Shown: one piece after another, positions 2,490-64,000 of the stretch
How the letters are laid out: the number at the start of each line of letters is the position of its first letter
Numbering within the stretch: the first letter of the stretch is position 1
Virus record (IMG/VR): IMGVR_UViG_3300042893_001581
Span: 1-64,000 of that record
Length of the DNA: 64,000 nucleotides
Reading direction: 5' to 3' (one strand)
Origin: a virus
Position numbers and translations under genes: made by a program
The notes under the pieces: generated by a model
Seen by the model: only the letters and a program-made list of their open reading frames with translations
Told to the model about the DNA's origin: nothing
Databases searched by the model: none

Positions 2490-3197
2490 TTATAAATTAA
2501 ATCGTGATTTTTGTGAATTGTAGTTTTGTAAAATTTCTGATGTTGAGAGAGTACGGTTATAAACTTGAATATTAGCTATGCTTCCATTAAGATATCTTCC
2601 ACTACTAGCCCTAGGATCACGACCTAATGCTACTACAGAATTTGAATTATTTACAATTCCAGTACTTATTCCTGTACTAGTACCATACAAAGTTCCATTT
2701 ATATACATTATTATATTAGATGTATTAATAGTTCCTGCTAGAAAATACCAAGTATTATTATCTAAAATAGAAGATGCTATATTTTTCCAAGCTCCATTAT
2801 CATTAACGTAAAAAGTTACTGTATTATTAGTATTACCATGCATTAACCAAACATTAGATGTCATGTCATCTAGAGAAAGAGTTGATTGGCCACAACCAGC
2901 ACCTGTTAATAAATCTCCATTTCTTTTTATCCACCAACAAACTGATAGTTGGTTTGTGTATTGGTAAAATGCTTGACCTGCTGTTGTTGTTGTATAATCA
3001 TCAATGCCATCAAACACAATACTTCCTCCATTAGCACTGTTGAAAGTAGGACTATTAGTTAAAGTACTATTACTATTATTCCCAGACATATCTCTCCAAG
3101 TAGTCCCACTACCAGGATAAGAATTTCTATCAGCAGCATCTAATGCTAATACTAATCCGTCTGTTACTATTTTACCAAATGCGTATTGTGTTGCCAT
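2490..3197 (-). CDS. LamG/concanavalin A-like lectin domain protein (paralog 3)
   Basis: GLVLALDA...FDGIDDY...WYFLAGT...MYING...LNGSIANIQVYNRTLS.SEILQNY, a typical LamG_3 pattern. Confidence 0.85.
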   Translation of the reverse strand: MATQYAFGKIVTDGLVLALDAADRNSYPGSGTTWRDMSGNNSNSTLTNSPTFNSANGGSIVFDGIDDYTTTTAGQAFYQYTNQLSVCWWIKRNGDLLTGAGCGQSTLSLDDMTSNVWLMHGNTNNTVTFYVNDNGAWKNIASSILDNNTWYFLAGTINTSNIIMYINGTLYGTSTGISTGIVNNSNSVVALGRDPRASSGRYLNGSIANIQVYNRTLSTSEILQNYNSQKSRFNL

Positions 3198-4543: not shown

Positions 4544-7500
4544 TTATAATAAGTTAGCAATAGATTTTACTGTCCAAACACCTGACGATGTAAATTGAAG
4601 TTGTACATTTGCTCCTGATATACCTACTGCGAATAGTGCAGAGTTTGTATTTCCTATATCAGTAGTTGTTACTTCAGTGTGTCTTATAGTTGTACCATTC
4701 CAAATTGACATTATTTGCCCTGCTCTTGCATTTGAACCAGACGATATAGAATAGTTGTAAAATGCTGAGTTAAATGATGATGTGTTTATTGATGATACTA
4801 CTAGTGAACCGGCTGTTGTAGTTGATGATGTCGGATTAAATTCTGCTATACCTAAATCTAATGGTCCACCAAGTATTGATACAGATCCTGTAAACTGATG
4901 TGTATTAGAAGTTAGTGTACCAAACTTAGTTGATCCAGTAATAAAGCTTACAGATGATGTTACTTGTTGTACATTAAGTGTCTGAGCAGTTATTGAACCG
5001 TTAGTTACTATACTACCTGTTACTTGAAGTACATTATTTAAAAAGTTAAGGTTAGCTTCAGCATTTGCAGTGTTTGTAGTACCTAATGAAGTTAATACTC
5101 TTCCTGTTACAGGATTTGTAATTGTATTAAATCCTGTTCCAGAAGTACCAGATGAACCACTCGATCCACTTGAACCTGAACTACCATTTGCACCGGATGT
5201 GCCAGAACTACCAGATGATCCTGATGTGCCTGAGCTACCGCTAGAGCCAGAAGTTCCAGATGAACCACTAGAACCAGATGTTCCAGATGAACCTGTAGAA
5301 CCTGAGCTACCACTAGTTCCAGATGAACCTGATGTTCCACTAGAGCCACTAGTTCCAGAAGATCCTGAACTACCAGAAGATCCACTAGAACCACTACTAC
5401 CATTTGCTCCAGAAGTACCAGATGATCCACTAGTACCACTTGAACCTGATGTACCTGAAGAGCCTGAGCTACCCGATGTTCCTGTTGATCCAGAACTACC
5501 AGATGTACCTGATGATCCACGAGTACCAGAAGTGCCTGAACTACCTGATGTTCCACTAGAACCAGATGTTCCAGAAGAGCCGCTTGTTCCGCTAGATCCG
5601 TTTGCTCCACTTGTTCCACTAGATCCTGATGTTCCAGATGAACCTGATGTACCTGACGAGCCATTGGCGCCGCTAGTACCAGAACTACCTGATGAACCAG
5701 ATGTTCCACTTGAGCCAGAAATACCAGAACTACCAGATGTGCCTGAACTACCAGAAGTTCCGGTTGAACCACTAGTTCCTGTTGAACCAGAACTTCCTGA
5801 AGTTCCAGATGAACCTGATGTGCCAGATGATCCAGAGCTACCGCTAGTTCCACTAGAACCGCTAGTACCATTTGCACCAGAAGTTCCTGAGGTACCAGAT
5901 GTAGCAGCAGTAAATGATGAACCATTTATAGTTAATGATCCAGTAATATTTACTGAGCCAGTAAATTGATGTGTGTTACTTAATAAAGTACCAAACTTAG
6001 TAGATCCAGTTACAAAATCAGTAGATGATGTAATTGTTTGTGCTACTATAGTTTGAGCAGTTAGTGTACCTCTTACAGTAAAATTTTCTGCTGATGAAGC
6101 TGTTAATGCATTTTGGGCCCATGAAGCTGTTCCAAATAAAGAACTCGTTATAGAAGTTGCAGAAATAGTATTTACATTATTAATATCATTAGCTCCAAGA
6201 TTTAAATCACCAGTCATTGCTCTAGTACCATCAACTAAAACATATTGAGGGTGATCATCTGCTTCTAATCCTAATAAGTTTCCATGTAAAGTAACTATAC
6301 CAGTTCTTGATGGAGATGCAAAACCAAGTCTAGGTCTTTCATCAATTATAGATTGGATACTAGAACTATTTGGGGTTACTACTATAGACGCAAATAATGC
6401 AAATTGTTCTGTTACAAAGCTTGGAGGAGTTGGTAAATTACCGGCTTCTGCCGCTTCAACATTATCATATAGGTCTTGACCATAAACAAGGAAATATTGA
6501 GTAGTAGGAAGGCCAATCATATATAATGAATGCTTCACATACTTTCCAGATGGAATTGATTGTAGTGTGCCAAAGCTAGCACTATCATATAAAGTATTAC
6601 TTGCTGTTGTTTGACTTGCTACTCTAGTAAAAGCAGAACCTCCTATACCAGTTCCTGATGAGCCACTTCTATATAATGCATCAAAAGTTATAGGAGTTGC
6701 TCCAGTTGTAGTAACCCTATGTTCAGAAAAGAAAAATATAGCAGATGTTACATCTAAACTTCTAGATACAATTCCTTGAGTAGTTATACCTCCTGATTGG
6801 AATATAGGTCCTAATGCGTCTCTAAATAATCGATCTACATAGTTTGCATAGTGATGCGCATCTAAAGGAGTTCTATCTATATAAACAACAGATGAATTAT
6901 CTGTCATTACCCTTCCTATAGGCACATTAAACCTAGAGTTTGGCTCTGTTGCTGAAGACGTTAAATTTCCTGAGCTATTATAATAAACATATCTATCAGC
7001 GTTTGCTGGAAGAGTTATTTGTCTAGAAACATCTGTAGAGCCTCTAGTATTAATTTTTCTTAAATTATGATTAGGATAGTTTCCTGTAGTCATTACGTAT
7101 CCTACAGATTCTGCTACTTGGATAGTTAATCCACTAGCTGTAGTTAAAGCTCCTCCATCAATAATACCCATCGTACCACCAAAGGATACTAAATCACCAA
7201 TTTCAGTTTGAGTAGCGTTAGGCTCTCTTACCCAATCTATGCCTCCATAAAGTACTACGGATGCAGTATTTATACCTGCTCCACCACTTGGTATTAAAAG
7301 AATATTTCCTCCAGGATTTGCAAATATGCTTGCACTAACTGATGATGAAACAAATAAAGATCCAGTTATATTAGTTTTTCCATTTATATTAATGGTAGTA
7401 CCATTATCTGTAATATTTGATGGAGCAACATGTTCATTACCAGTACCTTTTATAATAACATTAGCAGCTATATAAATTTCATTTCCTATATTATTATAGG

Positions 7501-10500
7501 TTTCTGGGCCCTGAAGGAAGTGAGATGATGTTACTCCTGCATTAGTATCTGTTTTATGAACAGAGAGCCATTCATCATGAAGTGAATCATATAAGAAAGA
7601 TCCTGATACTTGTGGACTAGATCCTGAATCAATTACGGCAAGCCCTCCAAATCTAACTGATGGACTATTAGTATTTACTGTAATTAAATTAGTTCCAATA
7701 TTAAGTGTAGATTGACTAATATAAGTAATAGAAGCAGATCCTAATACAGTTAAGTTTTGTAATACAGTTAAACTTCCAGATACTGTAGTAGTATTACCAG
7801 AGACTGTAAGTATCGCTGAAGCAGTTGCAGTATTTGTAGTACCGTCTGATACTAAAACTCTACCTACTGCAGCATTATTTATTGTATTAAATCCTGTACC
7901 AGATGTTCCACTAGAACCAGAACTACCTGATGTACCACTAGTACCTGAGCTTCCAGATGTGCCAGAAGAACCGCTTGTACCTGCTGAACCATTTGTTCCA
8001 GATGTTCCACTAGAACCAGATGTGCCAGATGTTCCTGAACTACCTGATGTGCCAGATGATCCATTTGCTCCAGATGTGCCAGAGCTACCTGATGTACCAG
8101 AACTACCAGATGTGCCTGTACTTCCACTAGAACCTGATGTTCCAGTTGAACCAGATGTGCCACTAGAACCGGATGATCCTGCAGTACCTGATGAACCTGA
8201 TGTTCCAGTTGAGCCACTAGATCCTGATGTTCCAGAAGAACCGCTTGTTCCGCTAGAACCATTTGTACCATTAGCACCAGAAGTTCCTGATGTACCAGAA
8301 GTGGCAGCAGTAAATGATGTTCCGTTTATAGTTAAAGATCCAGTAATGCTTACAGATCCTGTAAATTGATGTGTATTACTTAATAGAGTACCAAACTTAG
8401 TAGATCCAGTTACAAAATCTGTTGAAGACGTTATTTGTTGTACATTTAAAGTCTGAGCTACAATATTTCCTGTGACTGTTAAAGTAGTTCCATCAAAAGT
8501 TAAATTAGCCTCAGCATTTGCTGTATTAGTTGTACCTAATGATGTTAAGATTCTATTATCTACAGGGTTAGTAATAGTATTAAATCCTGTTCCAGATGTT
8601 CCAGAGCTACCGCTTGATCCAGATGAGCCAGATGTACCACTAGTACCGCTTGATCCAGATGTGCCTGAACTACCAGATGACCCGCTAGTTCCTGTTGAGC
8701 CAGAAGATCCAGATGTACCTGAAGAACCACTTGTGCCTGATGAACCTGCAGTGCCTGTAGATCCACTTGAACCTGAAGTTCCAGTTGAACCTGAAGAACC
8801 GCTTGTGCCTGAAATACCAGATGTTCCTGATGAACCAGAGGTTCCTGTACTTCCTGATGAACCTGAAGTTCCAGTTGTACCACTACTTCCACTAGTTCCA
8901 GAAGAACCGTTTGCACCAGAAGTACCACTTGAGCCTGAAGTACCAGTTGAGCCAGATGATCCAGAAGTTCCTGAGAATCCACTAGTACCACTTACTCCAC
9001 TAGTACCACTAGATCCAGAAGATCCACTAGTTCCATTTGCTCCACTAGTTCCTGAAGAACCAGTATTACCTGAGGTACCAGATGTTCCTGTAGCTACTAA
9101 GTTAGTTCCAACACCAGCGCCACCAGTAGTTATGTCTATAAAATATCCACGAGCATTTCCACCTTGTTCAAAAAATCTAAGTCTATTTTGCCAAATATCA
9201 ATTGTTACACCACTACCAGTTAGTGTTGTATTTGTTTCAGGCCTTCCTAATAAAAGTTCTCCACCTTCATCTCCACCAACAGTTCCTGCAGTTATTTTTG
9301 AAAGTGCACTACCGCTAACCACTAAAGCACCAACAACATTAAGTGTTGTTCCATCAAATGTTAAGTTAGCTTCAGCATTAGCTGTATTAGTTGTACCAAG
9401 AGATGTTATAACTCTATTGTCTGCTGGATTAGTAATTGTATTAAATCCAGTACCTGATGTACCAGAAGATCCGCTTGATCCACTACTACCATTTGCACCT
9501 GAAGTTCCAGAGCTACCAGATGTACCACTAGTTCCAGAAGAGCCGCTAGATCCATTTGCACCAGAAGTACCAGAAGAACCGCTAGAGCCAGATGAACCGT
9601 TAGCGCCTGAAGTACCAGAAGAACCGCTAGAGCCAGATGAACCGTTAGCGCCTGATGTACCAGAAGATCCGCTTGATCCACTACTACCATTTGCACCTGA
9701 AGTTCCACTTGAACCTGCAGTGCCACTAGATCCTGCACTTCCAGATGATCCAGATGTGCCTGTAGAACCAGAAGATCCAGAACTACCAGATGACCCTGCA
9801 GTGCCACTAGAACCTGATGTACCTGAAGTACCACTAGTAGCTGTAGTAAATGAAGTTCCATTTATAGTTAATGATCCAGTAATGTTTACTGAACCAGTAA
9901 ATTGATGCGTATTAGTTAGTAAACTTCCAAATATTGTTGAACCAGTAATATATTCTTGAGAAGCAGTAATATTTTGAACAATAAGAGTCTGAGCAGTTAT
10001 TGTTCCATTAGTTGATATACTACCTGTTACTTGTAAAGTATTATTAGAAAAAGATAAATTAGTTGATGCAGTTGCCGCATTTGTTGTTCCGTCTGATAAT
10101 ATTATTCTATTAGCTCCAGGATTATTAATGGTATTGAATCCTGTACCTGAAGTTCCTGAACTACCAGATGTACCACTAGTTCCAGAAGAGCCGCTAGATC
10201 CATTTGCTCCAGATATTCCACTACTTCCAGAAGTCCCAGTTGATCCGCTACTACCACTTGTACCTGTAGAACCAGAAGAACCGCTAGATCCGCTAGATCC
10301 ATTTGCTCCACTTGTACCACTAGATCCTGCAGTACCGCTAGATCCTGAGGTTCCAGATGAACCTGAAGTACCGGATGAGCCGCTTGCACCTGTTGCTCCA
10401 CTTGTTCCAGAAGAACCTGTACTACCTGAACTACCTGATGTTCCTGATTCTCCAGAAGTACCCGATGAACCTGCAGTTCCGCTTGAACCCGATGTGCCAG

Positions 10501-12913
10501 TTGATCCTGATGTTCCAGAAGAGCCGCTAGATCCTGAAGTACCGCTAGACCCAGTTGAACCAGAAGATCCAGATAAGCCCGATGTACCTGACGTGCCAGT
10601 ACTACCACTTGTGCCTGCAGAACCAGATTCTCCAGATGAACCAGAAGACCCTGCACTGCCGCTTGTACCAGTTGACCCTGAGGTTCCTGTAGAACCACTA
10701 GACCCGGATGTTCCAGTGCTACCACTAGTACCTGTAGATCCAGAGGTTCCGGTTGAGCCTGAAGTACCAGAAGAACCATTTTGTCCAGATGTACCTGAGC
10801 TACCTGATGTTCCACTTGAACCTGATGTACCGCTTGTACCTGATGAGCCAGAAGCCCCAGCTGTATTATAATATAATTGTCCTGTAGTTTCGTCTATAAC
10901 TACAAAACGAGATAAGTTATTTAGTGTAAGGTCTTTAACAGCTAAAGAACCAGTTACAGAAACACTACCAGTAAATTGATGAGTATTAGATAGTTGCGAT
11001 CCAAATATAGTAGATCCTGTTACAAAATCAACAGACGATGTAATTGTTTGAACTACAATTGTTTGTGCAGTTAAAGTGCCTCTTACTGTAAAATTATCAG
11101 CTGAAGATGCTGTTAAGGAATTTCTAGCCCAACTAGCACTACCATTTAAACTTCCTGTAATACCTCCTGATACTTGTAGAGATCCTGATATCTGCACTTC
11201 ATTTCCTGCAGCGTATATAAGATTACTTCTATTGCTGTCATCAGTTCCATTACCTACAATAAAAGCTGCGGGTACGGATGATGTAGCATTCCATTGGCCC
11301 TGTACGTGTTGGTGATTAGCTAATGCTATTGTTTGATAACCTTCGGCATGTGAATATGAGCCTGATGCTATTGTTTCTTGGCCTTCGGCATGTGAGTAGT
11401 CTCCTATTGCTTGGGTAAAATCTCCTTCAGCATGTGAGTAGTTTCCTATTGCTTTAGTAATACTTCCTTCAGCATGTGAGTATTCTCCTGTTGCTATATT
11501 TCCCTCTAATCCTTGAATAAGAGAGCCGGTTATAGATAAAGTATTATTTGTATAAGTTAAATTAGACGATGCAGTTGCTGCATTTGTTGTACCATCTGAT
11601 AATATTATTCTGCCTTGACCTGCATTACTAATAGTATTAAATCCTGTTCCTGAAGATCCTGCTGTACCTGCTGATCCAGATGAACCTGATGACCCAGAAG
11701 ATCCTGACGTTCCTGCCTCTCCACTTGTGCCTGAAGATCCTGATGTACCGCTTGAGCCTGTAGAACCAGATGAGCCACTAGATCCGCTAGTACCTGCGGA
11801 TCCACTTGAACCTGTCGATCCTGAACTACCAGATGATCCGCTTTCCCCACTAGTACCAGATGAACCAGAACTACCCGAAGTACCAGATGTTCCAGAGCTT
11901 CCGCTAGATCCAGTTGAGCCAGAACTACCTGATGTTCCCGACTCTCCACTAGTTCCTGAACTACCTGATGATCCAGAACTACCTGAGGTACCAGAAACTC
12001 CACTAGTGCCAGATGATCCAGAGGAACCTGAACTACCTGTACTACCAGACGATCCTGTAGAACCAGAACTTCCAGATGATCCAGAGCTTCCTGATGTACC
12101 AGATTCGCCACTAGATCCACTTGTTCCTGTAGAACCAGATGAACCAGAACTACCGCTCGTACCTGATTCTCCAGAACTTCCTGATGAACCTGATGATCCA
12201 GATGTTCCACTTTCCCCACTCGTACCAGAAGATCCTGATGTTCCAGTACTTCCAGAACTGCCAGATGATCCACTAGATCCAGAAGTACCTGAGCTACCGC
12301 TTGAACCTGAACTACCTGATGAACCTGCAGTGCCACTAGTTCCACTAGTAGCAGCAGTAAACGAAGAGCCATTTATAGTTAAAGATCCAGTTATACTTAC
12401 TGAGCCAGTAAACTGATGTGTATTTGAAAGTTGAGAGCCAAATATAGTAGAACCAGTTACAAAATCAGTTGATGATGTAATTGTTTGAGCTACAATTGTT
12501 TGAGCTGTTAATGTACCTCTTACTATAAAATTATCGGCAGATGATGCTGTTGCAGCTAAGGTTGCATTTTGAGCCTGTACTACATCATTAATATTATAGT
12601 TTTCTGTATCTCCGTCTCCTTTAATTAATTGAATAGTATCCGGGAATACTTGTATAGCTGTTACAAATGCATTAGGAGTGTTAGATGCGGTAAGTGCATT
12701 TACTGCCCAACTTGCTGTGCCAAAAAAAGATCCTGTAAATGAACCAGATGTATTACCTATTGTAACTATTTGTTCACCATTAGAACCAGATTTTTTAATA
12801 AATGCTAAACCATCATAGGTATTAAGTGCTATCTCACCAAATTGTAAAGACGCTGTGTCGGGTACTCTACCCGGTACTGCGGATCTGCGAAGCTTAAGAA
12901 ACTGGTTTGACAT
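4544..12913 (-). CDS. Giant (2789 aa) modular fibre protein with six Gly-X-Ser collagen-like tracts and a YadA-head-like SHAEG repeat block
   Basis: N-terminal fibre attachment-like motif LQFGEIALNTYDG; six (GTS/GSS)n tracts; repeated NTHQFTGSV and GFNTIxN modules; four YSHAEG repeats at about 11340-11495. Confidence 0.8.
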   Translation of the reverse strand: MSNQFLKLRRSAVPGRVPDTASLQFGEIALNTYDGLAFIKKSGSNGEQIVTIGNTSGSFTGSFFGTASWAVNALTASNTPNAFVTAIQVFPDTIQLIKGDGDTENYNINDVVQAQNATLAATASSADNFIVRGTLTAQTIVAQTITSSTDFVTGSTIFGSQLSNTHQFTGSVSITGSLTINGSSFTAATSGTSGTAGSSGSSGSSGSSGTSGSSGSSGSSGSTGTSGSSGTSGESGTSGSSGSSGSSGESGTSGSSGSSGSTGTSGSSGESGTSGSSGSSGSSGSTGSSGSTGSSGSSGSSGTSGVSGTSGSSGSSGSSGTSGESGTSGSSGSTGSSGSSGTSGTSGSSGSSGTSGESGSSGSSGSTGSSGSAGTSGSSGSSGSTGSSGTSGSSGTSGEAGTSGSSGSSGSSGSAGTAGSSGTGFNTISNAGQGRIILSDGTTNAATASSNLTYTNNTLSITGSLIQGLEGNIATGEYSHAEGSITKAIGNYSHAEGDFTQAIGDYSHAEGQETIASGSYSHAEGYQTIALANHQHVQGQWNATSSVPAAFIVGNGTDDSNRSNLIYAAGNEVQISGSLQVSGGITGSLNGSASWARNSLTASSADNFTVRGTLTAQTIVVQTITSSVDFVTGSTIFGSQLSNTHQFTGSVSVTGSLAVKDLTLNNLSRFVVIDETTGQLYYNTAGASGSSGTSGTSGSSGTSGSSGTSGQNGSSGTSGSTGTSGSTGTSGSTGTSGSSGSTGTSGSTGTSGSAGSSGSSGESGSAGTSGSTGTSGTSGLSGSSGSTGSSGTSGSSGSSGTSGSTGTSGSSGTAGSSGTSGESGTSGSSGSTGSSGTSGATGASGSSGTSGSSGTSGSSGTAGSSGTSGANGSSGSSGSSGSTGTSGSSGSTGTSGSSGISGANGSSGSSGTSGTSGSSGTSGTGFNTINNPGANRIILSDGTTNAATASTNLSFSNNTLQVTGSISTNGTITAQTLIVQNITASQEYITGSTIFGSLLTNTHQFTGSVNITGSLTINGTSFTTATSGTSGTSGSSGTAGSSGSSGSSGSTGTSGSSGSAGSSGTAGSSGTSGANGSSGSSGSSGTSGANGSSGSSGSSGTSGANGSSGSSGSSGTSGANGSSGSSGTSGTSGSSGTSGANGSSGSSGSSGTSGTGFNTITNPADNRVITSLGTTNTANAEANLTFDGTTLNVVGALVVSGSALSKITAGTVGGDEGGELLLGRPETNTTLTGSGVTIDIWQNRLRFFEQGGNARGYFIDITTGGAGVGTNLVATGTSGTSGNTGSSGTSGANGTSGSSGSSGTSGVSGTSGFSGTSGSSGSTGTSGSSGTSGANGSSGTSGSSGTTGTSGSSGSTGTSGSSGTSGISGTSGSSGSTGTSGSSGSTGTAGSSGTSGSSGTSGSSGSTGTSGSSGSSGTSGSSGTSGTSGSSGSSGSSGTSGTGFNTITNPVDNRILTSLGTTNTANAEANLTFDGTTLTVTGNIVAQTLNVQQITSSTDFVTGSTKFGTLLSNTHQFTGSVSITGSLTINGTSFTAATSGTSGTSGANGTNGSSGTSGSSGTSGSSGSTGTSGSSGTAGSSGSSGTSGSTGTSGSSGSTGTSGSSGTSGSSGTSGANGSSGTSGSSGTSGTSGSSGTSGTNGSAGTSGSSGTSGSSGTSGTSGSSGSSGTSGTGFNTINNAAVGRVLVSDGTTNTATASAILTVSGNTTTVSGSLTVLQNLTVLGSASITYISQSTLNIGTNLITVNTNSPSVRFGGLAVIDSGSSPQVSGSFLYDSLHDEWLSVHKTDTNAGVTSSHFLQGPETYNNIGNEIYIAANVIIKGTGNEHVAPSNITDNGTTININGKTNITGSLFVSSSVSASIFANPGGNILLIPSGGAGINTASVVLYGGIDWVREPNATQTEIGDLVSFGGTMGIIDGGALTTASGLTIQVAESVGYVMTTGNYPNHNLRKINTRGSTDVSRQITLPANADRYVYYNSSGNLTSSATEPNSRFNVPIGRVMTDNSSVVYIDRTPLDAHHYANYVDRLFRDALGPIFQSGGITTQGIVSRSLDVTSAIFFFSEHRVTTTGATPITFDALYRSGSSGTGIGGSAFTRVASQTTASNTLYDSASFGTLQSIPSGKYVKHSLYMIGLPTTQYFLVYGQDLYDNVEAAEAGNLPTPPSFVTEQFALFASIVVTPNSSSIQSIIDERPRLGFASPSRTGIVTLHGNLLGLEADDHPQYVLVDGTRAMTGDLNLGANDINNVNTISATSITSSLFGTASWAQNALTASSAENFTVRGTLTAQTIVAQTITSSTDFVTGSTKFGTLLSNTHQFTGSVNITGSLTINGSSFTAATSGTSGTSGANGTSGSSGTSGSSGSSGTSGSSGTSGSSGSTGTSGSTGTSGSSGTSGSSGISGSSGTSGSSGSSGTSGANGSSGTSGSSGTSGSSGTSGANGSSGTSGSSGTSGSSGTSGSSGTSGTRGSSGTSGSSGSTGTSGSSGSSGTSGSSGTSGSSGTSGANGSSGSSGSSGSSGSSGTSGSSGTSGSSGTSGSSGSTGSSGTSGSSGSSGTSGSSGSSGTSGSSGSSGTSGANGSSGSSGSSGSSGTSGTGFNTITNPVTGRVLTSLGTTNTANAEANLNFLNNVLQVTGSIVTNGSITAQTLNVQQVTSSVSFITGSTKFGTLTSNTHQFTGSVSILGGPLDLGIAEFNPTSSTTTAGSLVVSSINTSSFNSAFYNYSISSGSNARAGQIMSIWNGTTIRHTEVTTTDIGNTNSALFAVGISGANVQLQFTSSGVWTVKSIANLL

Positions 12914-42231: not shown

Positions 42232-42265
42232 CAAATATAAGACAAAAAAATGACATAAAAAAATA
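42232..42265 (-). promoter_or_regulatory. Bacteroidota-type promoter (TATATTTG) for primase
   Basis: Minus strand ...TTTTTATGTCATTTTTTTGTCTTATATTTGATAAATG matches the TAnnTTTG -7 element 4 nt before the ATG. Confidence 0.55.
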
Positions 42266-57022: not shown

Positions 57023-57682
57023 ATGTCATATTTAAGTAGTACATCAGTAGTAGTAGATGCTATCCTTACTAAAAAAGGTAGAGAACTCCTTTCCAGAAAT
57101 GATGGATCATTTAGAATTACTCAGTTTTCTTTAGCTGATGATGAGATCGATTATACTCTATATAACCCCACCCACCCATCAGGATCTGCATTTTATGGTG
57201 AGGCTATTGAAGCGATGCCAATTATTCAAGCATATCCTAATGATATGGAAATCATGAAGTATAAGCTTATTACGCTTCCAAGAGGCACTGCAAAAATTCC
57301 AGTATTAGATCTTGGATATACGGCAATTACAATAAAACAAGGAGCTTCTTTAGCAATTACTCCTCAAACATTAAATTATCTTGGAGCAACATCAACCTTT
57401 GAACAATCAGGATATGTAGCTACAATTGGTGATGTAAGAACAATGAGTTCATTTAATGGAGTTGGTATTAATACTCCTGAAGCTACGTCATTAAATAGTA
57501 CAACAACTATAGGTACTAACGTAAGTAAGACAGTTATAGGAACAACAATTAATTTAACTGCAACCACGGTTAATACTTTATTTGGCTCTAATACATCTTT
57601 ATTTACTACCTTAGTCGTAGTAGGTCGTGATTCTGGCGCTAGAATTAGTATTCCTGTAACAATCGTAAAGGTAACCTCATAA
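57023..57682 (+). CDS. Virion structural protein
   Basis: DAILTKKGRELL...ITQFSLADDEIDY; late promoter motif at 56999-57006. Confidence 0.6.
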   Translation: MSYLSSTSVVVDAILTKKGRELLSRNDGSFRITQFSLADDEIDYTLYNPTHPSGSAFYGEAIEAMPIIQAYPNDMEIMKYKLITLPRGTAKIPVLDLGYTAITIKQGASLAITPQTLNYLGATSTFEQSGYVATIGDVRTMSSFNGVGINTPEATSLNSTTTIGTNVSKTVIGTTINLTATTVNTLFGSNTSLFTTLVVVGRDSGARISIPVTIVKVTS

Positions 57683-57693
57683 TATATTAAAAT

Positions 57694-58728
57694 ATGTCAT
57701 TTACAAGATTAGATCCTACAGATTTTGTGGTATCTGCCGACTCAGTAACGGCACCAGCATGGAGTAATAATGTAACTACTCTTACTAGTTTTTTTACAGC
57801 TTCTGCATCAACTACGGGTAGTTATTACGTTGATGTATATGATGGAAATATAAGTTCTCCATCTGCATCAGTTCAATTCTCAGTAGCTTATGGACATTAT
57901 GCTGGATCTGGATCTTTAGCTCTAAATAGTTTAGTGCTAGGAAAAAGCCCAACTAGAATTACATTTGGCCAATTTAGAAATTTAATTTATGGAGATGCAG
58001 AAAGTGCTGTAAATTTTGGTACGGGAAATGTTGATTCAGATGATTTAATAGCTATTCAAATAGATAGAAATAGATATAAAGAGAGTTTATTCCCAGGTAC
58101 TTTTAATTTAACTTTACTTAATGGTGCCAACGGTCCTATTAAATTAACTGATAACTCAAATGATGTAAGTACTATAACATATTTAGACGGTGGAAGAGTT
58201 TATAATATAGTATCTGGTTCTAATGGAACGGCTAAAAATAGTCCAACTTTATCTGGAGCAACTCAAGGAAATACTGTGTCAGGAAGTTATGGTTTATTTT
58301 TACCTGACATTGGATTAATTCTTTTAAACCCTAGAGCTTTATCTTTGGGCACTGCTGCTGGTGGAATTGTTACTTCATTCAATACAACAGCAAATACAGT
58401 AGCTGCATCTAGTGCAAATAATAATTTAATCTATGCTATAATTAATTCTGGTTCTAATTTTCAACTTAATTCTCAAGAAACAATCTCTTCTGATTATGTA
58501 TTTGTAAGATTTAAAAATGCTGACTATAACTATACTACTAATCCTTCATTTATAACGGGTTCTGGTGAATTAATATATTCTAATTTCATTAATAGTCCTC
58601 AAACATATCCTACAACTGTTGGATTGTATAACGATAACAATGAATTATTAGCAGTAGCTAAAATGTCTAAACCTCTTACAAAAGACTTTACTAAAGAGGC
58701 TCTTATTAGAGTTAAATTAGATTGGTAG
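57694..58728 (+). CDS. Baseplate/tail structural protein (intact paralog)
   Basis: C-terminal YNYTTNPSF...TTVGLYNDNNELLAVAKMSKP...IRVKLDW. Confidence 0.65.
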   Translation: MSFTRLDPTDFVVSADSVTAPAWSNNVTTLTSFFTASASTTGSYYVDVYDGNISSPSASVQFSVAYGHYAGSGSLALNSLVLGKSPTRITFGQFRNLIYGDAESAVNFGTGNVDSDDLIAIQIDRNRYKESLFPGTFNLTLLNGANGPIKLTDNSNDVSTITYLDGGRVYNIVSGSNGTAKNSPTLSGATQGNTVSGSYGLFLPDIGLILLNPRALSLGTAAGGIVTSFNTTANTVAASSANNNLIYAIINSGSNFQLNSQETISSDYVFVRFKNADYNYTTNPSFITGSGELIYSNFINSPQTYPTTVGLYNDNNELLAVAKMSKPLTKDFTKEALIRVKLDW

Positions 58729-58751: not shown

Positions 58752-60797
58752 ATGGGAATGTCAAAAAATACTCTTGATAGATCAGATATTTCTACTTTTC
58801 CTATAAAGTTAAAATATTCTTCATCTTATGCAAGTTCATCTGCTGTAAGTTATGGAATAACTTTAAATAGAGGAATTAATGGATCTTTTAATTCTGACGG
58901 AGAAGATTTTCTAGTATATAAATTAGCTAAACAACTATATTATAATTCTTATTTAACTGGATCTTTAAATAATACTGCAAGTGCTTGGAATGACAATTTA
59001 CAATCCACGGCAGCATCAGGTACTTTTGATAATGATTATAGATATTTTCCAACTACATCGGGTGATGAAATAACAGTATTAGCAATACCTAGGACTGTTT
59101 TTGGTGAAAATATAAGTAGAAAAAGTTTTGTATTATCAGGAACTACTTATAATTTAATTGATGACGGTAATGGAAATGTTATAGATGTAAATAATAATAA
59201 CGTACATGTAGGAAATATATTATATGCTCAAGGAATAGTTATTATTACAAATTTAGATTATGAGTATGCTCTAATACAAACAACGACAACGACAACTACT
59301 ACTAGTACTACATCAACTACTACTACTGCGGCACCTACAACCACTACTACTAGTACAACAACTAGTACAACTACGGCTGCGCCGACTACTACTACTAGTA
59401 CAACAACTAGTACAACTACGGCTGCGCCGACTACTACTACTAGTACAACAACTAGTACAACTACGGCAGAGCCGACTACTACTACTAGTACAACAACTAG
59501 TACAACTACGGCAGAGCCGACTACTACTACTAGTACAACAACTAGTACAACAACAGAAACTCCAACAACTACCACAACTACTAGTACAACCACTAGTACA
59601 ACAACTGTTGCATCTACAAACCATTTTAGAAGTGTAACTCCTCAAAGTAGTGCTGCTAACGCTTGTCTACAAAGTACACCGAATGATATCTATACTTCTG
59701 TAGCAACATCTACTATGGCAAACAGTATTGTATTCTATTCAGATGCTAATTTAAACACTGTTTTTAATGGTGCAAGCCAATGGTTCAAAATATTATGGAA
59801 AGGATCTGTAGGATTTGATGATATTTATGCAGTACAAATTAATTCGTCAGGTGTAGTGTTAAATTGGGAATACTGCCCAACAACTACCACAACAACTAGT
59901 ACAACAACAGGAGTTCCTACAACCACTACAACTAGTACAACGACTAGTACAACAACAGAAGTTCCTACAACCACTACAACTAGTACAACGACTAGTACAA
60001 CTACAGCAGCTTGTTATGAATATGTAGCAACGGCAGGCCAAACAGATATAGATAATTCAGATAATGGAACTGTTTATTTTAACTATACAGATTGTGATGG
60101 AAATCCTCAAACTCTTAGCAGAGGAACAACTACTCCAAGCAATCCAGTTTGTGCTATAAATGTAGGAAGTGTTTATATATTAATAGGAGGAAATCAATCC
60201 GCAGCTGGAAGCAGTTCATGGAGTACACCTGGAACACAGTGTAATGGAGCTCCAACGACCACAACTACTAGCACTACAACAGAAGCTCCGACAACAACTA
60301 CTACTAGCACGACTACTAGTACTACAACTGTAGTACCTACTACAACAACGACTAGTACAACTACATCAACAACAACAGAAACTCCAACAACAACTACTAC
60401 TAGTACAACAACTAGTACTACAACTGCAGAACCAACTACAACTACAACGACAACTAGTACAACTACATCAACAACTACAGCAGAGCCTACTACAACCACA
60501 ACAAGTACAACTACAACAACTACAACTATAGCTTGTTATGAATATATAGCTACAGCAGATCAAACAGATATAGATAATTCTGATAACGGAACTGTTTATT
60601 TTGAGTATGTTGATTGTGATGGAGTAACCCAAACACTAACTAGAGGAACAACAACTCCAAGTGATCCGGTATGTGCAAGAAGCGTAGGATCAGTTTATAT
60701 ATTAATAGGAGGAAATGCATCAGCTGCAGGTGGTAGTTCTTGGAGCGTACCTGGTACACAATGTAATCCTGGTGGCGGTGGTGGAGGTGGAGCGTAA
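58752..60797 (+). CDS. Structural protein N-domain fused to a Thr-rich mucin-like region with Cys-containing domains
   Basis: About 175-aa globular N-domain, then (AAPTTTTSTTTSTTT)n-type tracts interrupted by three Cys-containing domains; ends GGGGGGA. Confidence 0.75.
   Translation: MGMSKNTLDRSDISTFPIKLKYSSSYASSSAVSYGITLNRGINGSFNSDGEDFLVYKLAKQLYYNSYLTGSLNNTASAWNDNLQSTAASGTFDNDYRYFPTTSGDEITVLAIPRTVFGENISRKSFVLSGTTYNLIDDGNGNVIDVNNNNVHVGNILYAQGIVIITNLDYEYALIQTTTTTTTTSTTSTTTTAAPTTTTTSTTTSTTTAAPTTTTSTTTSTTTAAPTTTTSTTTSTTTAEPTTTTSTTTSTTTAEPTTTTSTTTSTTTETPTTTTTTSTTTSTTTVASTNHFRSVTPQSSAANACLQSTPNDIYTSVATSTMANSIVFYSDANLNTVFNGASQWFKILWKGSVGFDDIYAVQINSSGVVLNWEYCPTTTTTTSTTTGVPTTTTTSTTTSTTTEVPTTTTTSTTTSTTTAACYEYVATAGQTDIDNSDNGTVYFNYTDCDGNPQTLSRGTTTPSNPVCAINVGSVYILIGGNQSAAGSSSWSTPGTQCNGAPTTTTTSTTTEAPTTTTTSTTTSTTTVVPTTTTTSTTTSTTTETPTTTTTSTTTSTTTAEPTTTTTTTSTTTSTTTAEPTTTTTSTTTTTTTIACYEYIATADQTDIDNSDNGTVYFEYVDCDGVTQTLTRGTTTPSDPVCARSVGSVYILIGGNASAAGGSSWSVPGTQCNPGGGGGGGA
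59345..59550 (+). repeat. 45-bp tandem repeat (about 4.5 copies) encoding A(A/E)PTTTTSTTTSTTT
   Basis: GCCGACTACT recurs at 59381, 59426, 59471 and 59516. Confidence 0.9.
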
Positions 60798-60836
60798 CAA
60801 CTTTCACAATATTTATTAATATAAAATAAAACTGTT

Positions 60837-61793
60837 ATGAAAAATTTACGTTATATTTGTGCTCAACCTAGATTGGTTTATTATGCTTGGCAAGTAGAAG
60901 TTATGATTAATAATTTCATTAAGAATGGAATTAATCCTAATAATATAGATATTCTTGTAGCTTGGAATCCTAATGATGATACAAGTAAGCCAGAGACTAT
61001 TGAGATGTGGAATAAACTTACAGCTCATTATAATACTGTCAGATTCTTTTTTTATGAAGATACTAGGAAAAAGCCTATACACTACATTTCATCCATTAGG
61101 CCAAACATACTGAAGCAACACTTTAAAGCTCACCCTGAATTAAAAGACGAGGCAATATTTTATCATGATTGTGATATTTTATTTACTAAGCCTGTTGATT
61201 GGACTAATCTATTAAATGATGATATTTGGTATTTAAGTGATACCAATAGTTATATAAACTCCTCGTACATACTTTCTAAGGGTGAGGATGTTTACAACAA
61301 GATGTGTGAGATTGTTGGTATAGATTCAATAGTACCAAAACTAATGAACTCTAATTCAGGTGGTGCACAGTACATACTAAAAAATGTAGGTTGGGAATAT
61401 TGGACAAAAGTAGAACAAGATTCTGAAAACTTATTTTACCAAATAAATCAACTAAATCATAAGAAGAAAGAAGAAGATCCATCTCATCATGAACTTCAAA
61501 TATGGTGTGCAGATATGTGGGCCGTGTTGTGGAACGGGTGGCTTTGGGGTAATGAAACAAAGGTAATTAAAGAAATGGATTTTAGTTGGGCAACAGATTC
61601 AGAAGAACGATTTAATGAAACAAATATATTTCATAATGCAGGAGTAACTTGTTCTTGTGGAGGAAAGTTTTATAAAGCTAACTATAGAGATTCACTTCCT
61701 TATAATTTAGATCTTAGAATAAAAGAAGGAATGGCAAGTTATAAATACTATCAAGAAATTCAAGAAGTAGAAAAAAAATCTTCTTTATTGTGA
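60837..61793 (+). CDS. Putative protein O-glycosyltransferase (similar to plant peptidyl-serine galactosyltransferase/HPAT, GT96/GT95)
   Basis: YYAWQVEVM, Y.SSIRP, YHDCDILFTKP (DxD), GGAQY, WCADMWA; late promoter motif at 60809-60816. Confidence 0.6.
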   Translation: MKNLRYICAQPRLVYYAWQVEVMINNFIKNGINPNNIDILVAWNPNDDTSKPETIEMWNKLTAHYNTVRFFFYEDTRKKPIHYISSIRPNILKQHFKAHPELKDEAIFYHDCDILFTKPVDWTNLLNDDIWYLSDTNSYINSSYILSKGEDVYNKMCEIVGIDSIVPKLMNSNSGGAQYILKNVGWEYWTKVEQDSENLFYQINQLNHKKKEEDPSHHELQIWCADMWAVLWNGWLWGNETKVIKEMDFSWATDSEERFNETNIFHNAGVTCSCGGKFYKANYRDSLPYNLDLRIKEGMASYKYYQEIQEVEKKSSLL

Positions 61794-61804
61794 TTAAATA
61801 AATT

Positions 61805-62380
61805 ATGAAAATAGAATTTATAATATCAACTCATGGTAGAGTTAATAACTTAAATATGTCTTTAGGTTGTTTACAAAGTCAAACAAATAAAAATTGGGTA
61901 GCTAATATTATAGTTGACGGAATTAAAGATCCATACATTGAGTGTGAAAAATATTTTTCAAATGATGATAGAATAATATTTAATTATTTGGAAAAAAATT
62001 ATAATGACTTTGGGAATACTCCAAAAAATATAGGATTGCAATCAGCAAAAGAAGAATTAGTTATTATGACTAGCGATGATAATTATTACGTTGCATCTTT
62101 TGTTCAAGAAGTATTAAATAATTATTCGGAAAATATTAATTTTATTTATTGTGATATGATACATAATGGATATGATTATAAATTTTTTGAAACGTACCAC
62201 TCATCTCATAGAATAGATATTGGTATAATGATTATGAAAACAAAATTTGCTAAACAATTAAAATTAACAGAAAACAGAATAGACTCAGATGGAATTTTTT
62301 GTCATGAATATACTTCTAAATTTTGTCAAAATGAAGGGTCAATTAAAAAAATAAATAAAATTTTATATGCTCATAATTAA
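61805..62380 (+). CDS. Glycosyltransferase family 2-like
   Basis: IISTHGR...LQSQTNKNW...IIVDG...G.TPKNIGL...TSDDNYY. Confidence 0.85.
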   Translation: MKIEFIISTHGRVNNLNMSLGCLQSQTNKNWVANIIVDGIKDPYIECEKYFSNDDRIIFNYLEKNYNDFGNTPKNIGLQSAKEELVIMTSDDNYYVASFVQEVLNNYSENINFIYCDMIHNGYDYKFFETYHSSHRIDIGIMIMKTKFAKQLKLTENRIDSDGIFCHEYTSKFCQNEGSIKKINKILYAHN

Positions 62381-63242
62381 AGCTCTATACGGAAATAAAG
62401 ATTGCACTCAACAAATTAAGTCTAAAATTGTAAATGATAAATTAATAGTTAGATCATGTAACGATATTATAGGTGATACACTTCCTGGAGTTATAAAATA
62501 TCTTGAAGTAGATATAGAGCATAAAAATAAAATTTATAATGAAAAAATTAAAGAGGGAGAGTTATTAGTTTTTCCTAAATCAAAAAATAATAAATTAGGA
62601 ATTTTTTATTCTAATAATCATGTCTCTCAAACTTATCCTACTATAAAAAAATCTTTAGATACAATAAAAATAGCATCAGAAGGAAAAGCAGATATTTTAA
62701 CTTGTATGTGGAATCACGAACCTGATAATCCATTTCCTGAATTTATTTCTTGGGTAAAGATATCTAGCCACCTAAATCAATTGCTTCAAATAATGCATTT
62801 ATTATATCAAGCAAGAGAGATTAATAATTATAATTATGTTTCTTTTCTAGAACATGATGTTCTTTATCCAGAAGGATATTTTGATTATCCAGAAATAAAT
62901 GATGGAGAAGTTTTAACTAATATGAATTATATGGGGATTTGCAGAAGCGGTTGGCAAAGTTTAGGGCAGTTAGATCAACCATTTCATCAAATGACTATGA
63001 AATTTTCAGAAGCAATAAAACATTGTGAATCTATATTGTCTAATGCGTTAATAAGAAATTCAGGTCTTATAGAACCTCAAAATATTATCAGAAAAACTTG
63101 GAATTGTATTAATCCCTCTGTCCATGTTAATCATGGATATCATTTTACTTCTCACTTTAATGTGTACAGAAAAGATGATATTTTTCACGAACATTCATAT
63201 TGGGGAATTTTTGAAAACTATAAGTATTTATTTGAGTTTTAA
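62367..63242 (+). CDS. Putative glycosyltransferase with a small N-terminal lectin-like (SUEL-type) domain
   Basis: IIKALYG...GDTLPGVIKYLEV N-domain; VSFLEHDVLYP acidic motif; HVNHG.HFT. Confidence 0.55.
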   Translation: MLIIKALYGNKDCTQQIKSKIVNDKLIVRSCNDIIGDTLPGVIKYLEVDIEHKNKIYNEKIKEGELLVFPKSKNNKLGIFYSNNHVSQTYPTIKKSLDTIKIASEGKADILTCMWNHEPDNPFPEFISWVKISSHLNQLLQIMHLLYQAREINNYNYVSFLEHDVLYPEGYFDYPEINDGEVLTNMNYMGICRSGWQSLGQLDQPFHQMTMKFSEAIKHCESILSNALIRNSGLIEPQNIIRKTWNCINPSVHVNHGYHFTSHFNVYRKDDIFHEHSYWGIFENYKYLFEF

Positions 63243-63253
63243 TATTTATAAGT

Positions 63254-63553
63254 ATGCCATCTTATTCTGCATATACACTTAATTTAGTAGCCGAGACAAC
63301 TGTATACCAAAACGAAGTTAGGTGTAGGGTGAAGGAAAATGATTTTAACTATACGTTAAATCCGAGTGCAAATAAAGCAGGAACCTCAGGTTCTTATATA
63401 GATGCAGTAACAGGTTCAGACTTTCATCCTTATACAACCACAGTAGGATTATATAATGATAAAGATGAGTTATTAGTAGTTGGAAAATTATCTAGGCCAT
63501 ATCCAATTCCACCTAATACAGATATGACTTTTATTATAAGGTGGGATAGTTAA
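63254..63553 (+). CDS. Stand-alone C-terminal domain paralogous to the C-terminus of 57694-58728
   Basis: FNYTLNPS...YTTTVGLYNDKDELLVVGKLSRP...FIIRWD; own late promoter motif at 63242-63249. Confidence 0.75.
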   Translation: MPSYSAYTLNLVAETTVYQNEVRCRVKENDFNYTLNPSANKAGTSGSYIDAVTGSDFHPYTTTVGLYNDKDELLVVGKLSRPYPIPPNTDMTFIIRWDS

Positions 63554-63563
63554 AAAATAAAGT

Positions 63564-64000
63564 ATGAATAAATGGTTATATTTTGATCCTCTAGGAGTTA
63601 CTAGAGAGTTTAATTCAATAGAAGACTTTCCACCCAATACTGTTGGCTTTATATATAAGATTGTCAATCTAGTCAATGGCAAATTCTATATAGGTAGAAA
63701 GGTCCTTTTCAATAATACCAATAAAGTATTAACCAAGAAGGAGATCGCGGAATGGGACAAACCTGGGCGCGTCCCACGCAAGAAGAAGATCATTAAAGAA
63801 TCTGATTGGTTATCATACCATGGAAGTAATAAGCTTCTTAATCAAGAAAGAAAAGAAATAGGGGATGATATGTTTACTAGAGAGATCTTACAATTATGTT
63901 ACTCTAAAAAACAATTGACTTATTATGAAGTATGGTGGCAAATGCATTACAAAGTTCTTCATATAGATTCATATAACGATAATATCCAAGGTAGGTTCTA
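63564..64000 (+). CDS. GIY-YIG family nuclease-like protein, truncated at the right window edge (not in ORF track)
   Basis: MNKWLY...GFIYKIVNLVNGKFYIGRK...ESDWLSYHGS...FTREIL...YNDNI. Confidence 0.8.
   Translation, partial: MNKWLYFDPLGVTREFNSIEDFPPNTVGFIYKIVNLVNGKFYIGRKVLFNNTNKVLTKKEIAEWDKPGRVPRKKKIIKESDWLSYHGSNKLLNQERKEIGDDMFTREILQLCYSKKQLTYYEVWWQMHYKVLHIDSYNDNIQGRF

Follow-up and report, generated by a model that had tools for sequence, protein, structure and literature searches.

Glycosylation of phage virions has a known precedent in the mycobacteriophages, which use enzymes unrelated to those described here. In the mycobacteriophages Che8 (gp108-110), Corndog and Myrna, phage-encoded glycosyltransferases add sugars to capsid and tail-tube proteins of the phage itself (Freeman et al. 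2023, Cell Host Microbe 31:1216; described in PMC12363180). In animals, polypeptide GalNAc-transferases carry out dense O-glycosylation of Thr/Ser/Pro tandem repeats. The plant and algal hydroxyproline O-arabinosyltransferases (HPAT; GT95, PF23452) and the peptidyl-serine alpha-galactosyltransferase SGT1 (GT96) attach the first sugar to hydroxyl-bearing side chains in extended, repetitive stretches of protein, the plant enzymes being Golgi membrane proteins with a retaining mechanism. Among eukaryotic viruses, Chlorovirus PBCV-1 encodes the cytoplasmic GT-A enzyme A64R, which acts on the major capsid protein and builds N-linked-type glycans. Here we analyse a window of 64,000 nucleotides from an IMG/VR virus record, for which an earlier note had proposed a dedicated O-glycosylation cassette.

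Results

Organisation of the locus

The segment 58752-63242 of the window encodes a 681-aa protein with Thr/Ser tracts (P0001) followed by three soluble glycosyltransferases of GT-A fold (P0002, P0003 and P0004) behind one promoter-like motif, and all four open reading frames listed in the earlier note were found in place. The source phage is T4-like and aquatic, with gp23, gp20 and a T4-type terminase being present. The genes upstream show synteny to the baseplate module of Flavobacterium phage immuto, and the P0001 N-terminus is similar to gp105 of that phage (E 4e-6), bearing out the assignment to a baseplate region. The promoter-like motif AATATTTAT (60808..60816, + strand) lies 20 nt before the first glycosyltransferase gene, where the earlier note had proposed a late promoter motif. 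It is enriched in the window (12 copies versus 5.1 expected, with 0 of 100 shuffles reaching 12), its copies mostly sit just 5' of start codons, and it is absent between the three glycosyltransferase genes, the next copy being found at 63241.

This next copy precedes a 99-aa open reading frame (63254..63553, +) that aligns with the last third of immuto gp105 (aa 241-356, E 6e-25). Together with the gp105-like N-terminus of P0001 this shows, at the level of sequence comparison, the tract-plus-glycosyltransferase cassette interrupting a split gp105-like structural gene. The cassette is flanked by a SegE-type GIY-YIG homing endonuclease gene (63564..63998, +; PF19835, E 3.7e-25) running off the window end, and 13 of 80 related loci likewise have a homologue of this endonuclease downstream. 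The window ORFs that were scanned include no gene for nucleotide-sugar synthesis. All four proteins, P0001 to P0004, are predicted to be soluble, no transmembrane segment being predicted in any of them.

The mucin-like protein P0001

P0001 (58752..60797, +) is a mucin-like fibre protein (32% Thr, 12% Ser) and contains three Thr/Ser tracts of 262 residues in total. The gp105-like baseplate-module domain (aa 1-173) is followed by tract 1 (aa 174-290, nt 59271-59621), a globular segment (aa 291-373), tract 2 (aa 374-421, nt 59871-60014), a four-Cys module (about aa 418-497), tract 3 (aa 499-595, nt 60246-60536) and a second four-Cys module (about aa 594-673) that is 80% alike to the first, the C-terminal end being a poly-Gly tail. 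The DNA of the tracts consists of 45- and 48-nt tandem repeats with units of the TTTTSTTTSTTTA[AE]P type. A tract-type peptide, (TTTTSTTTSTTTAAP)n, is a candidate acceptor for P0002.

The glycosyltransferases P0002, P0003 and P0004

P0002 (60837..61793, +; 318 aa) is a soluble GT-A glycosyltransferase and, by fold, motifs and linkage, a candidate initiating Thr/Ser O-glycosyltransferase belonging to phrog_4417, a large phage family without a name. The motifs quoted previously are all present, i.e. YYAWQ (aa 15-19), YISSIRP (83-89), HDCDILFTKP (110-119) and WCADMWA (223-229), with W18, Q19, Y83, D111, D113, M227 and W228 occupying invariant or near-invariant family columns. The DxD motif is D111-C-D113 (nt 61167-61175), D113 being invariant in the family and D111 nearly so. 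The structure model (pLDDT 97.3) adopts a GT-A fold resembling retaining GT8-type enzymes; the top matches are LgtC (Z 14.7), glycogenin (14.3), Skp1 Gat1 (14.1), the UGGT catalytic domain (13.7) and GlyE (12.6), with WbbM and LARGE1 also among the best structural neighbours. The earlier note had named DNA-modifying and lipopolysaccharide glycosyltransferases as best structural matches that would speak against its reading: the 50 best contain no DNA glycosyltransferase, but LgtC, which acts on lipooligosaccharide, ties with glycogenin, Skp1 Gat1, UGGT and GlyE, which are protein-directed, so that the fold by itself is compatible with either kind of acceptor.

P0002 itself has no Pfam match, GT8 and PF23452 included, and a profile search of PDB sequences returned nothing real. 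The proposed kinship to plant GT95/GT96 is weak and borderline at the sequence level: PF23452, which alone among Pfam models recurs in the family, matches 2 of 48 family members (best E 1.3e-4) but none of 83 more divergent members and none of 5 GenBank phages, and a language-model search returned viral clusters with HPAT in 10% of members. The retaining mechanism of the plant enzymes fits the retaining-type fold neighbours of P0002. Literature searches turned up no paper on the phrog_4417 family, and no glycan, mass shift or enzyme activity reported for any of its members.

P0003 (61805..62380, +; 191 aa) is a candidate extender, a compact glycosyltransferase of the GT2 family in which a DDNYY motif is conserved. 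Its own Pfam GT2 score is just under the cut-off (21.5 versus 23.3 bits), the GT2 assignment made previously being backed by PF00535 in nearly all of 101 homologues. Most loci with a member of the P0003 family (73 of 80) are not cassettes of this kind; the closest P0003 homologues (six loci, at least 45% identity) all keep the order P0002-P0003-P0004, five of the six with an S/T tract just upstream. P0004 (62367..63242, +; 291 aa), likewise a candidate extender, comprises by profile and fold matches a SUEL/rhamnose-binding-lectin-like beta domain (aa 1-70, nt 62367-62576; profile E 1e-7 to 5h4s), confirming the lectin-like domain noted before, and a GT-A domain (aa 73-290, nt 62583-63236; Z 14.2 to 6p61) with an invariant E162-H163-D164 motif. 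Members of the P0004 family are found at positions +1 to +3 in 39 of 80 related loci. All three genes initially described as glycosyltransferase-like are GT-A glycosyltransferases, as judged by the folds of P0002 and P0004 and the GT2 homologues of P0003.

Linkage of the P0002 family to Ser/Thr tracts

In 80 IMG/VR loci carrying a P0002 homologue (49-77% identity), an S/T tract is present in gene -1 in 50 of 77 loci (65%) and in gene -2 in 12 of 73, compared with 25 of 1226 genes (2%) at all other positions and 0-2% at downstream positions. The odds ratio at -1 is 89 (Fisher p 2e-51), the loci being related to one another so that raw counts overstate independence; when the enzymes are clustered at 70% identity, 17 of 28 clusters show the pairing, and the proteins carrying the tract belong to 9 unrelated groups. 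The co-occurrence anticipated in the earlier note is also found in seven cultured phages of other families. A gene with terminal or internal poly-Thr lies next to the enzyme in Lactococcus 1706 (ORF13), Enterococcus phiFL1A (gp50), Clostridium phiCTP1 (gp18), Staphylococcus PMBT8, Lactobacillus Semele (gp075) and Chryseobacterium MA9V-3, and a poly-Thr tail-tube gene lies five genes from it in Enterococcus VPE25. In these cultured carriers the tract often forms the C-terminus of the tail-tube protein.

In the reverse direction, among 52 arbitrarily chosen viral loci that encode at least 10 consecutive Thr in frame, 5 carry a P0002-family enzyme, in all five cases immediately downstream of the run on the same strand. 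The related phage immuto has neither a P0002-family enzyme nor any 8-Thr run. The gene -1 tract is missing in 35% of related loci and the enzyme sometimes lies among non-structural genes; for four of five loci without a tract, poly-Thr proteins are encoded elsewhere in the record, and these four include all three whose records are at least 90% complete. In one locus, L009, the same gp105-like N-terminal gene stops exactly where the P0001 tract begins and is followed by the enzyme and a radical SAM gene, with no tract.

The genes 3' of P0002-family enzymes include the P0004 family, GT2, GT32, GT6, radical SAM/SPASM and methyltransferase genes. Fused forms (at least 450 aa) make up 83 of the 150 best representative clusters, the partners scanned comprising GT7C, GT2, GT6, GT29, GT25, GT32, radical SAM and methyltransferase domains. 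Judged by their domain assignments, these neighbours and fused domains are variable glycan-extending or sugar-modifying enzymes. As would be expected for a priming transferase, the first enzyme stays constant while the extenders vary.

Discussion

Gene content, folds, conserved catalytic motifs and the linkage of enzyme and tract across phages are direct observations. The P0002-family enzyme lies directly after Thr-run virion proteins in many unrelated phages, suggesting that it probably sugar-coats the phage particle. For the locus itself we favour, as the likely reading, a virion O-glycosylation cassette in which P0002 starts O-glycosylation of the Thr tracts and P0003 and P0004 extend the glycan. 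Of the earlier reading, which is partly supported overall, the dedicated cassette acting on the phage's own mucin-like virion protein is the part supported by co-occurrence, while the division into priming, extending and modifying enzymes and a function in shielding, stiffening or adhesion are inferences.

We infer the acceptor, donor sugar, order of action and biological benefit as follows. The three genes would be transcribed as a single unit from the promoter-like motif at 60808, and the enzymes would act in the cytoplasm, the four proteins having no membrane segment. P0002, as a metal-dependent GT-A enzyme with a DxD motif and a retaining GT8-type shape, would transfer the first sugar from a host nucleotide-sugar onto Thr/Ser hydroxyls of the TTTTSTTTSTTT tracts of P0001, and P0003 (GT2) and P0004 would next extend the glycan. 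The lectin-like domain of P0004 may keep the enzyme on already glycosylated tracts, as in animal mucin GalNAc-transferases. The products would be stiff, protease-resistant bottle-brush spacers holding the two small Cys-containing modules of P0001 off the baseplate, with the gp105-like N-terminus serving as the putative baseplate anchor.

It is conceivable, but in our view unlikely, that the enzymes glycosylate an acceptor other than P0001, i.e. host LPS/capsule or another non-protein acceptor, the Thr tracts being plain flexible linkers and the adjacency reflecting hypervariable swap-site cargo in the tail module. LgtC, the nominal top structural match, is a lipooligosaccharide galactosyltransferase, the position of the cassette within a split structural gene beside a homing endonuclease looks like mobile cargo, the enzyme of L009 occupies this site with no tract beside it, and the P0003 family is mostly found elsewhere. 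However, the pairing recurs in phages whose genomes are laid out very differently, among them temperate siphoviruses infecting Gram-positive bacteria, where the tail-tube protein carries the tract as its C-terminal tail and a swap site plays no part, and the tract position is directional, upstream rather than downstream. Envelope-modifying glycosyltransferases usually use lipid-linked acceptors at the membrane, whereas the enzymes described here are soluble and located in structural modules.

Giant collagen-like fibre proteins of the (Gly-Ser/Thr-Ser)n type might be the main substrates instead of or besides P0001, resembling glycosylated collagen-like BclA of Bacillus spores or serine-rich-repeat adhesins. 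Two proteins encoded in the window, one of 2789 aa and one of at least 728 aa, contain Pfam Collagen repeats (E 1e-147 and 2e-73) whose X and Y positions are almost all Ser/Thr, and GlyE, a GT8 enzyme decorating a serine-rich-repeat adhesin, is a structural neighbour of P0002. We consider this quite improbable, since these genes lie at least 46 kb away on the opposite strand and the cross-phage linkage concerns near-pure Thr runs adjoining the enzyme, not Gly-X-Y repeats. A modification of phage DNA, comparable to the sugar hypermodification of bases in T4-like phages, would be in line with the T4-like character of the phage (gp23, gp20, T4-type terminase), as T4 relatives glycosylate their DNA. 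The T4 alpha- and beta-glucosyltransferases have a GT-B fold, however, while P0002 and P0004 are GT-A enzymes with no DNA glycosyltransferase among the best 50 matches, and the P0002 family is linked to Thr tracts and common in small temperate siphoviruses amid tail genes, making this explanation hardly credible.

Compared with described systems, the proposed O-glycosylation by P0002 would parallel plant HPAT and SGT1 in transferring a first sugar onto repetitive tracts, but P0002 is soluble, unlike the plant Golgi enzymes, and its proposed acceptors are Thr runs instead of the Ser/Hyp of extensins. Glycogenin, Skp1 Gat1, UGGT and GlyE, the last from the pneumococcal pathway for a serine-rich-repeat adhesin, have the GT-A fold with DxD in common with P0002 (Z 12.6-14.3 over 217-246 residues), at a sequence identity of 8-12%. 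PBCV-1 A64R (2p6w) is a lower-ranked and much shorter match (Z 11.3) from a eukaryotic virus. P0004 combines a GT-A and a lectin-like domain as animal GalNAc-transferases do, and GalNAc-T structures are among its fold matches at values ordinary for GT-A domains (Z 10.9-11.5); its lectin domain is SUEL-like and at the opposite protein end, whereas that of the GalNAc-transferases is ricin-like, making the likeness an analogy, not kinship.

Like some P0002-family loci, the mycobacteriophage systems include a methyltransferase. Che8 encodes a GT2 plus methyltransferase, a GT2 and a GT25 enzyme with no detectable kinship to P0002: hhalign of the P0002 family against Che8 gp108 and gp110 found nothing, and tblastn with P0002 found no Mycobacterium phage. 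The host range is entirely different. Virion glycosylation is proven in the mycobacteriophages, where the sugars reportedly sit on Ser/Thr-rich C-terminal tails, and is predicted for the P0001 cassette, in which the carrier would be a long mucin-like fibre with three internal tracts instead of a short tail.

Ser/Thr tracts next to the enzyme gene

We show that P0002, the candidate initiating glycosyltransferase of the window (60837-61793; here called the enzyme), belongs to a viral family whose genes are regularly preceded by a gene encoding Ser/Thr tracts. Eighty viral-metagenome loci carrying a P0002 homologue were sampled, a non-overlapping gene set was called in each and every gene was scored, a tract being called where Ser and Thr made up 10 or more of 12 residues in at least three windows. 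The earlier note had proposed testing for co-occurrence of the enzyme with Ser/Thr-rich genes, and such a co-occurrence was found: 50/77 genes at position -1 of the enzyme (65%) contain a tract, compared to 25/1226 (2%) at all other positions, resulting in an odds ratio of 89 for a tract at -1. Tracts are present in 12/73 genes at -2 and in 0-2% of those at +1 to +8. Since the pairing is found in 17 of the 28 enzyme clusters formed at 70% identity, and since masking of the tracts leaves nine groups of carrier proteins lacking detectable mutual similarity, it does not reflect one lineage being counted repeatedly. An adjacent tract is absent in a third of the P0002 loci; among five loci without one, four encode poly-Thr proteins at another place in their record. 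In the reverse direction, of 52 viral loci chosen arbitrarily for an in-frame stretch of ten or more Thr, 5 carry the enzyme, in all five immediately downstream and on the same strand.

The same arrangement is seen in cultured phages. A tail-tube or major structural protein with a poly-Thr end adjoins the enzyme in Lactococcus phage 1706, Enterococcus phage phiFL1A, Clostridium phage phiCTP1 and Staphylococcus phage PMBT8, while its neighbour is a small Thr-repeat protein in Lactobacillus phage Semele and a protein with an internal tract in Chryseobacterium phage MA9V-3. For Enterococcus phage VPE25 the poly-Thr tail-tube gene is located five genes away from the enzyme. The 250-nt gap between capsid and enzyme genes of VPE25 (locus L088, about 2752-3001), unannotated in the record, contains 8 or more consecutive Thr codons (record positions 77924-77946) that may represent a small unannotated Thr-tag ORF. 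The 160-kb genome of Flavobacterium phage immuto, the nearest cultured relative of the window by DNA, contains neither the enzyme nor a run of eight Thr.

A mucin-like protein within a split structural gene

The window derives from a T4-like myophage and contains genes for the gp23 capsid protein, the gp20 portal and a terminase of the T4 type. The four ORFs described in the earlier note are all present at their places, at the end of a plus-strand baseplate module in which the genes directly upstream (57023-58728, plus strand) match immuto gp107 and gp106. The Thr/Ser-tract gene that the note had assigned to the baseplate region is confirmed as P0001 (58752-60797), a protein of the baseplate or fibre module containing 32% Thr and three tracts with 262 residues in all (a peptide of the tract type is written (TTTTSTTTSTTTAAP)n), encoded by 45- and 48-nt tandem repeats. 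One globular segment and two four-Cys modules, 80% alike, are located between the tracts; language-model and structure look-ups with the Cys module returned just unnamed phage proteins with low scores.

The first approximately 170 residues of P0001 match the N-terminal part of immuto gp105, and a 99-aa ORF following the glycosyltransferase genes (63254-63553) matches gp105 residues 241-356 (E 6e-25), showing that the tracts and the three glycosyltransferase genes are placed inside a split gp105-like structural gene. This context supports the prediction of P0001 being a virion protein. The first piece of the gp105-like gene (58752-59270) is fused to the mucin tracts, the second one (63254-63553) stands separately with a promoter-like motif of its own. 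In about 15 of the 80 related loci, matches to the 99-aa piece are found at +1 to +4 of the enzyme; the gp106-like gene (57694-58728) matches the same ORFs. A SegE-type GIY-YIG homing endonuclease (63564-63998, plus strand; PF19835, E 3.7e-25) follows directly after the C-terminal gp105 piece, and homologues of it are present downstream of the cassette in 13/80 related loci. In locus L009 (9446-11985), encoding an enzyme 76% identical to P0002, the gp105-like N-terminal gene stops at ...ALIQ, exactly where the Thr tract of the window begins; the genes that follow encode the enzyme, a radical SAM/SPASM protein and the 99-aa piece, leaving the corresponding site tract-less.

In the window the motif AATATTTAT occurs in excess (12 copies compared to 5.1 expected), mostly 5-25 nt upstream of start codons and on both strands, and is probably a phage promoter element. 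Among the 12 sites are 12967, 22190, 28752 and 40500 on the minus strand and 44919, 48713, 60808 and 63241 on the plus strand. The promoter motif reported earlier ahead of the glycosyltransferase run corresponds to one copy preceding P0002 (60808-60816); as the next copy precedes the 99-aa ORF, the three glycosyltransferase genes resemble one transcription unit. At about 42230-42730 gene orientation and GC/AT skew change sign, with minus-strand genes lying before this point and the plus-strand baseplate module after it, and a copy of the promoter-like motif is found at 42262 in the gap at this orientation switch.

P0002 has a GT-A fold

P0002 is a member of phrog_4417, a family of unknown function comprising 3677 clusters at 90% identity (E 0.001 or below) and 862 matches among 50%-identity representatives, and has no Pfam match at E 0.1 or below. 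Its AlphaFold2 model, computed with 48 diverse sequences as input, consists of a single Rossmann-like GT-A domain (pLDDT 97.3). We found 91 PDB representatives at Z 8 or more, nearly all of the matches listed being GT-A-fold nucleotide-sugar transferases or nucleotidyltransferases. The best neighbours are retaining GT8-type enzymes, i.e. LgtC, glycogenin, WbbM, Skp1 Gat1, UGGT, LARGE1 and GlyE, effectively tied at Z 12.6-14.7, and the fold does not discriminate between proteins and glycolipids as acceptors. The DxD motif, which in GT-A enzymes binds the metal and the nucleotide-sugar, is formed by H110-D111-C112-D113. D113 is invariant and D111 is kept in 90% or more of the 48 sequences (alignment A1), and both are invariant in 83 more divergent members (alignment A3).

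An assignment to CAZy GT8 or Pfam Glyco_transf_8 was rejected, as neither P0002 nor 131 family members showed a sequence match, the likeness being in the fold only. PDB sequence searches with P0002 alone and with the family profile returned spurious matches only, to adenylyl cyclase and TALE repeats; sequence thus detects no relative of P0002 with a solved structure. The fold search in BFVD resulted in two uncharacterised family members followed by generic GT8-like viral enzymes.

Relationship to plant HPAT and SGT1

The resemblance of P0002 to the plant peptidyl-hydroxyl glycosyltransferases is no more than suggestive of a remote kinship. By its own score P0002 falls outside the Pfam HPAT family PF23452, showing no match to this profile (curated cut-off 23.9 bits). 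When 48 members of the P0002 family were scanned singly, PF23452 was the top Pfam family, with 2/48 matching and a best E of 1.3e-4; among the 83 more divergent members none matched at E 0.01, the domains of fusion partners being the only ones found. In a language-model search, 22 of the 30 named matches were to viral clusters in which 10% of the members carry HPAT. PF23452 was found in 0/5 GenBank phage genomes carrying the enzyme and also in 0/14 control genomes, for which reason this search says little, and PDB searches turned up no GT95 or GT96 structures. Plant HPAT and SGT1 have a type II membrane anchor, whereas P0002 is devoid of a membrane segment (maximum 19-residue hydropathy 0.73). 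Taking these profile and language-model results together, we consider the chances for and against a remote kinship with HPAT to be about even.

Partner enzymes and alternative substrates

Membrane segments are absent from P0001, P0002, P0003 and P0004. P0004 (62367-63242) comprises a GT-A domain at residues 73-290 (Z 14.2) preceded by a beta-rich, possibly lectin-like N-terminal segment. The family profile of this segment matches, over 24-38 residues, all three repeats of 5h4s, a SUEL/rhamnose-binding lectin (E 1e-7), and both repeats of CSL3 (E 5.7e-4). The P-C of the SUEL signature at the domain end (...N-x-V/I-F/I-G-D-P-C-x-G-x-x-K-Y-L-E-V) is not kept, and there is no match to Pfam Gal_Lectin. 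Members of the P0004 family are encoded in the region directly downstream of the enzyme in 39/80 loci. P0003 (61805-62380) is a compact GT2 enzyme scoring 21.5 bits alone compared to the 23.3-bit cut-off of PF00535, a domain present in nearly all of its 101 homologues (26-75% identity); its N-terminus matches EpsD and PglI of NCBIfam. None of the 80 P0002 loci contains a P0003 homologue at E 1e-3, and in a separate scan of P0003-family loci (L217-L296) 73/80 were outside any P0002 or tract context, indicating from gene context that this 191-aa GT2 family, widespread in viral contigs, has other uses in phages.

The remaining downstream genes are variable and include those for GT2, GT32 and GT6 enzymes, radical SAM/SPASM proteins and methyltransferases. 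Fusions are frequent as well: 83 of the best 150 representative clusters have a length of 450 aa or more, and the partners scanned comprise GT7C, GT2, GT6, GT29, GT25, GT32, radical SAM and methyltransferase domains. A constant enzyme placed by a tract and combined with swappable extenders is the look that would be expected of a priming transferase with lineage-specific glycans. This gene arrangement is in line with the reading we favour, according to which the cassette would O-glycosylate its own Thr tracts. Two giant collagen-repeat proteins of 2789 aa (4544-12913) and at least 728 aa (2-2185), both encoded on the minus strand and with Gly-X-Y repeats that are almost all Gly-Ser/Thr-Ser, are possibly fibres or further or alternative glycosylation substrates. 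The local GC of their genes is 0.42-0.49 compared to about 0.30 elsewhere.

A wider role and comparison with known virion glycosylation

Beyond the window, we put forward tentatively, and with rather low confidence, that phrog_4417 serves phages in general as the 'mucin-type' enzyme initiating Thr O-glycosylation and shares an ancient origin with the plant enzymes HPAT/SGT1, with poly-Thr tags marking, on proteins of capsid, tail tube and fibre, a widespread unseen sugar coat on phages of Firmicutes and Bacteroidota and on abundant aquatic T4-like phages, the glycans being lineage-specific via swappable extenders. If phrog_4417 glycosylates virions, virion glycosylation would be common, the carriers of the family including already cultured phages of dairy, gut and staphylococcal bacteria as well as abundant aquatic phages. 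A poly-Thr tag beside the enzyme gene would then allow glycosylated virion proteins to be predicted simply from the genome, which would matter for how stable phages are, how they adhere, how they are recognised by the immune system in phage therapy and how cryo-EM maps are read. Mucin-like glycoproteins could moreover be made with a set of soluble enzymes working in the bacterial cytoplasm.

Our literature search returned no paper on phrog_4417 or on poly-Thr tags in phages, and nothing that connects the family, 'prophage pi2 protein 34' or poly-threonine tags with glycosylation in phages. One study reported no glycoprotein staining in ten other phages. For the mycobacteriophages Che8, Corndog and Myrna it is established that phage-encoded enzymes glycosylate the virion (Freeman et al. 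2023, as cited in PMC12363180); in the account of PMC12363180, phage sugar coats are shown only for a few mycobacteriophages, where antibody recognition is blunted. The Ser/Thr-rich tract on a virion structural protein, typical of the mycobacteriophage systems, is also present here, in P0001 and in the tail-tube proteins of cultured relatives. The enzymes differ: Che8 gp108-110 are a GT2/methyltransferase, a GT2 and a GT25 enzyme, the Pfam families differ, and hhalign comparison of the P0002 family with gp108 and gp110 gave probabilities below 1%, i.e. no profile similarity. The cassette, described here from sequences and predicted structures, would follow the same logic as mycobacteriophage glycosylation, the enzyme family being another one that has no name and is far more widespread.
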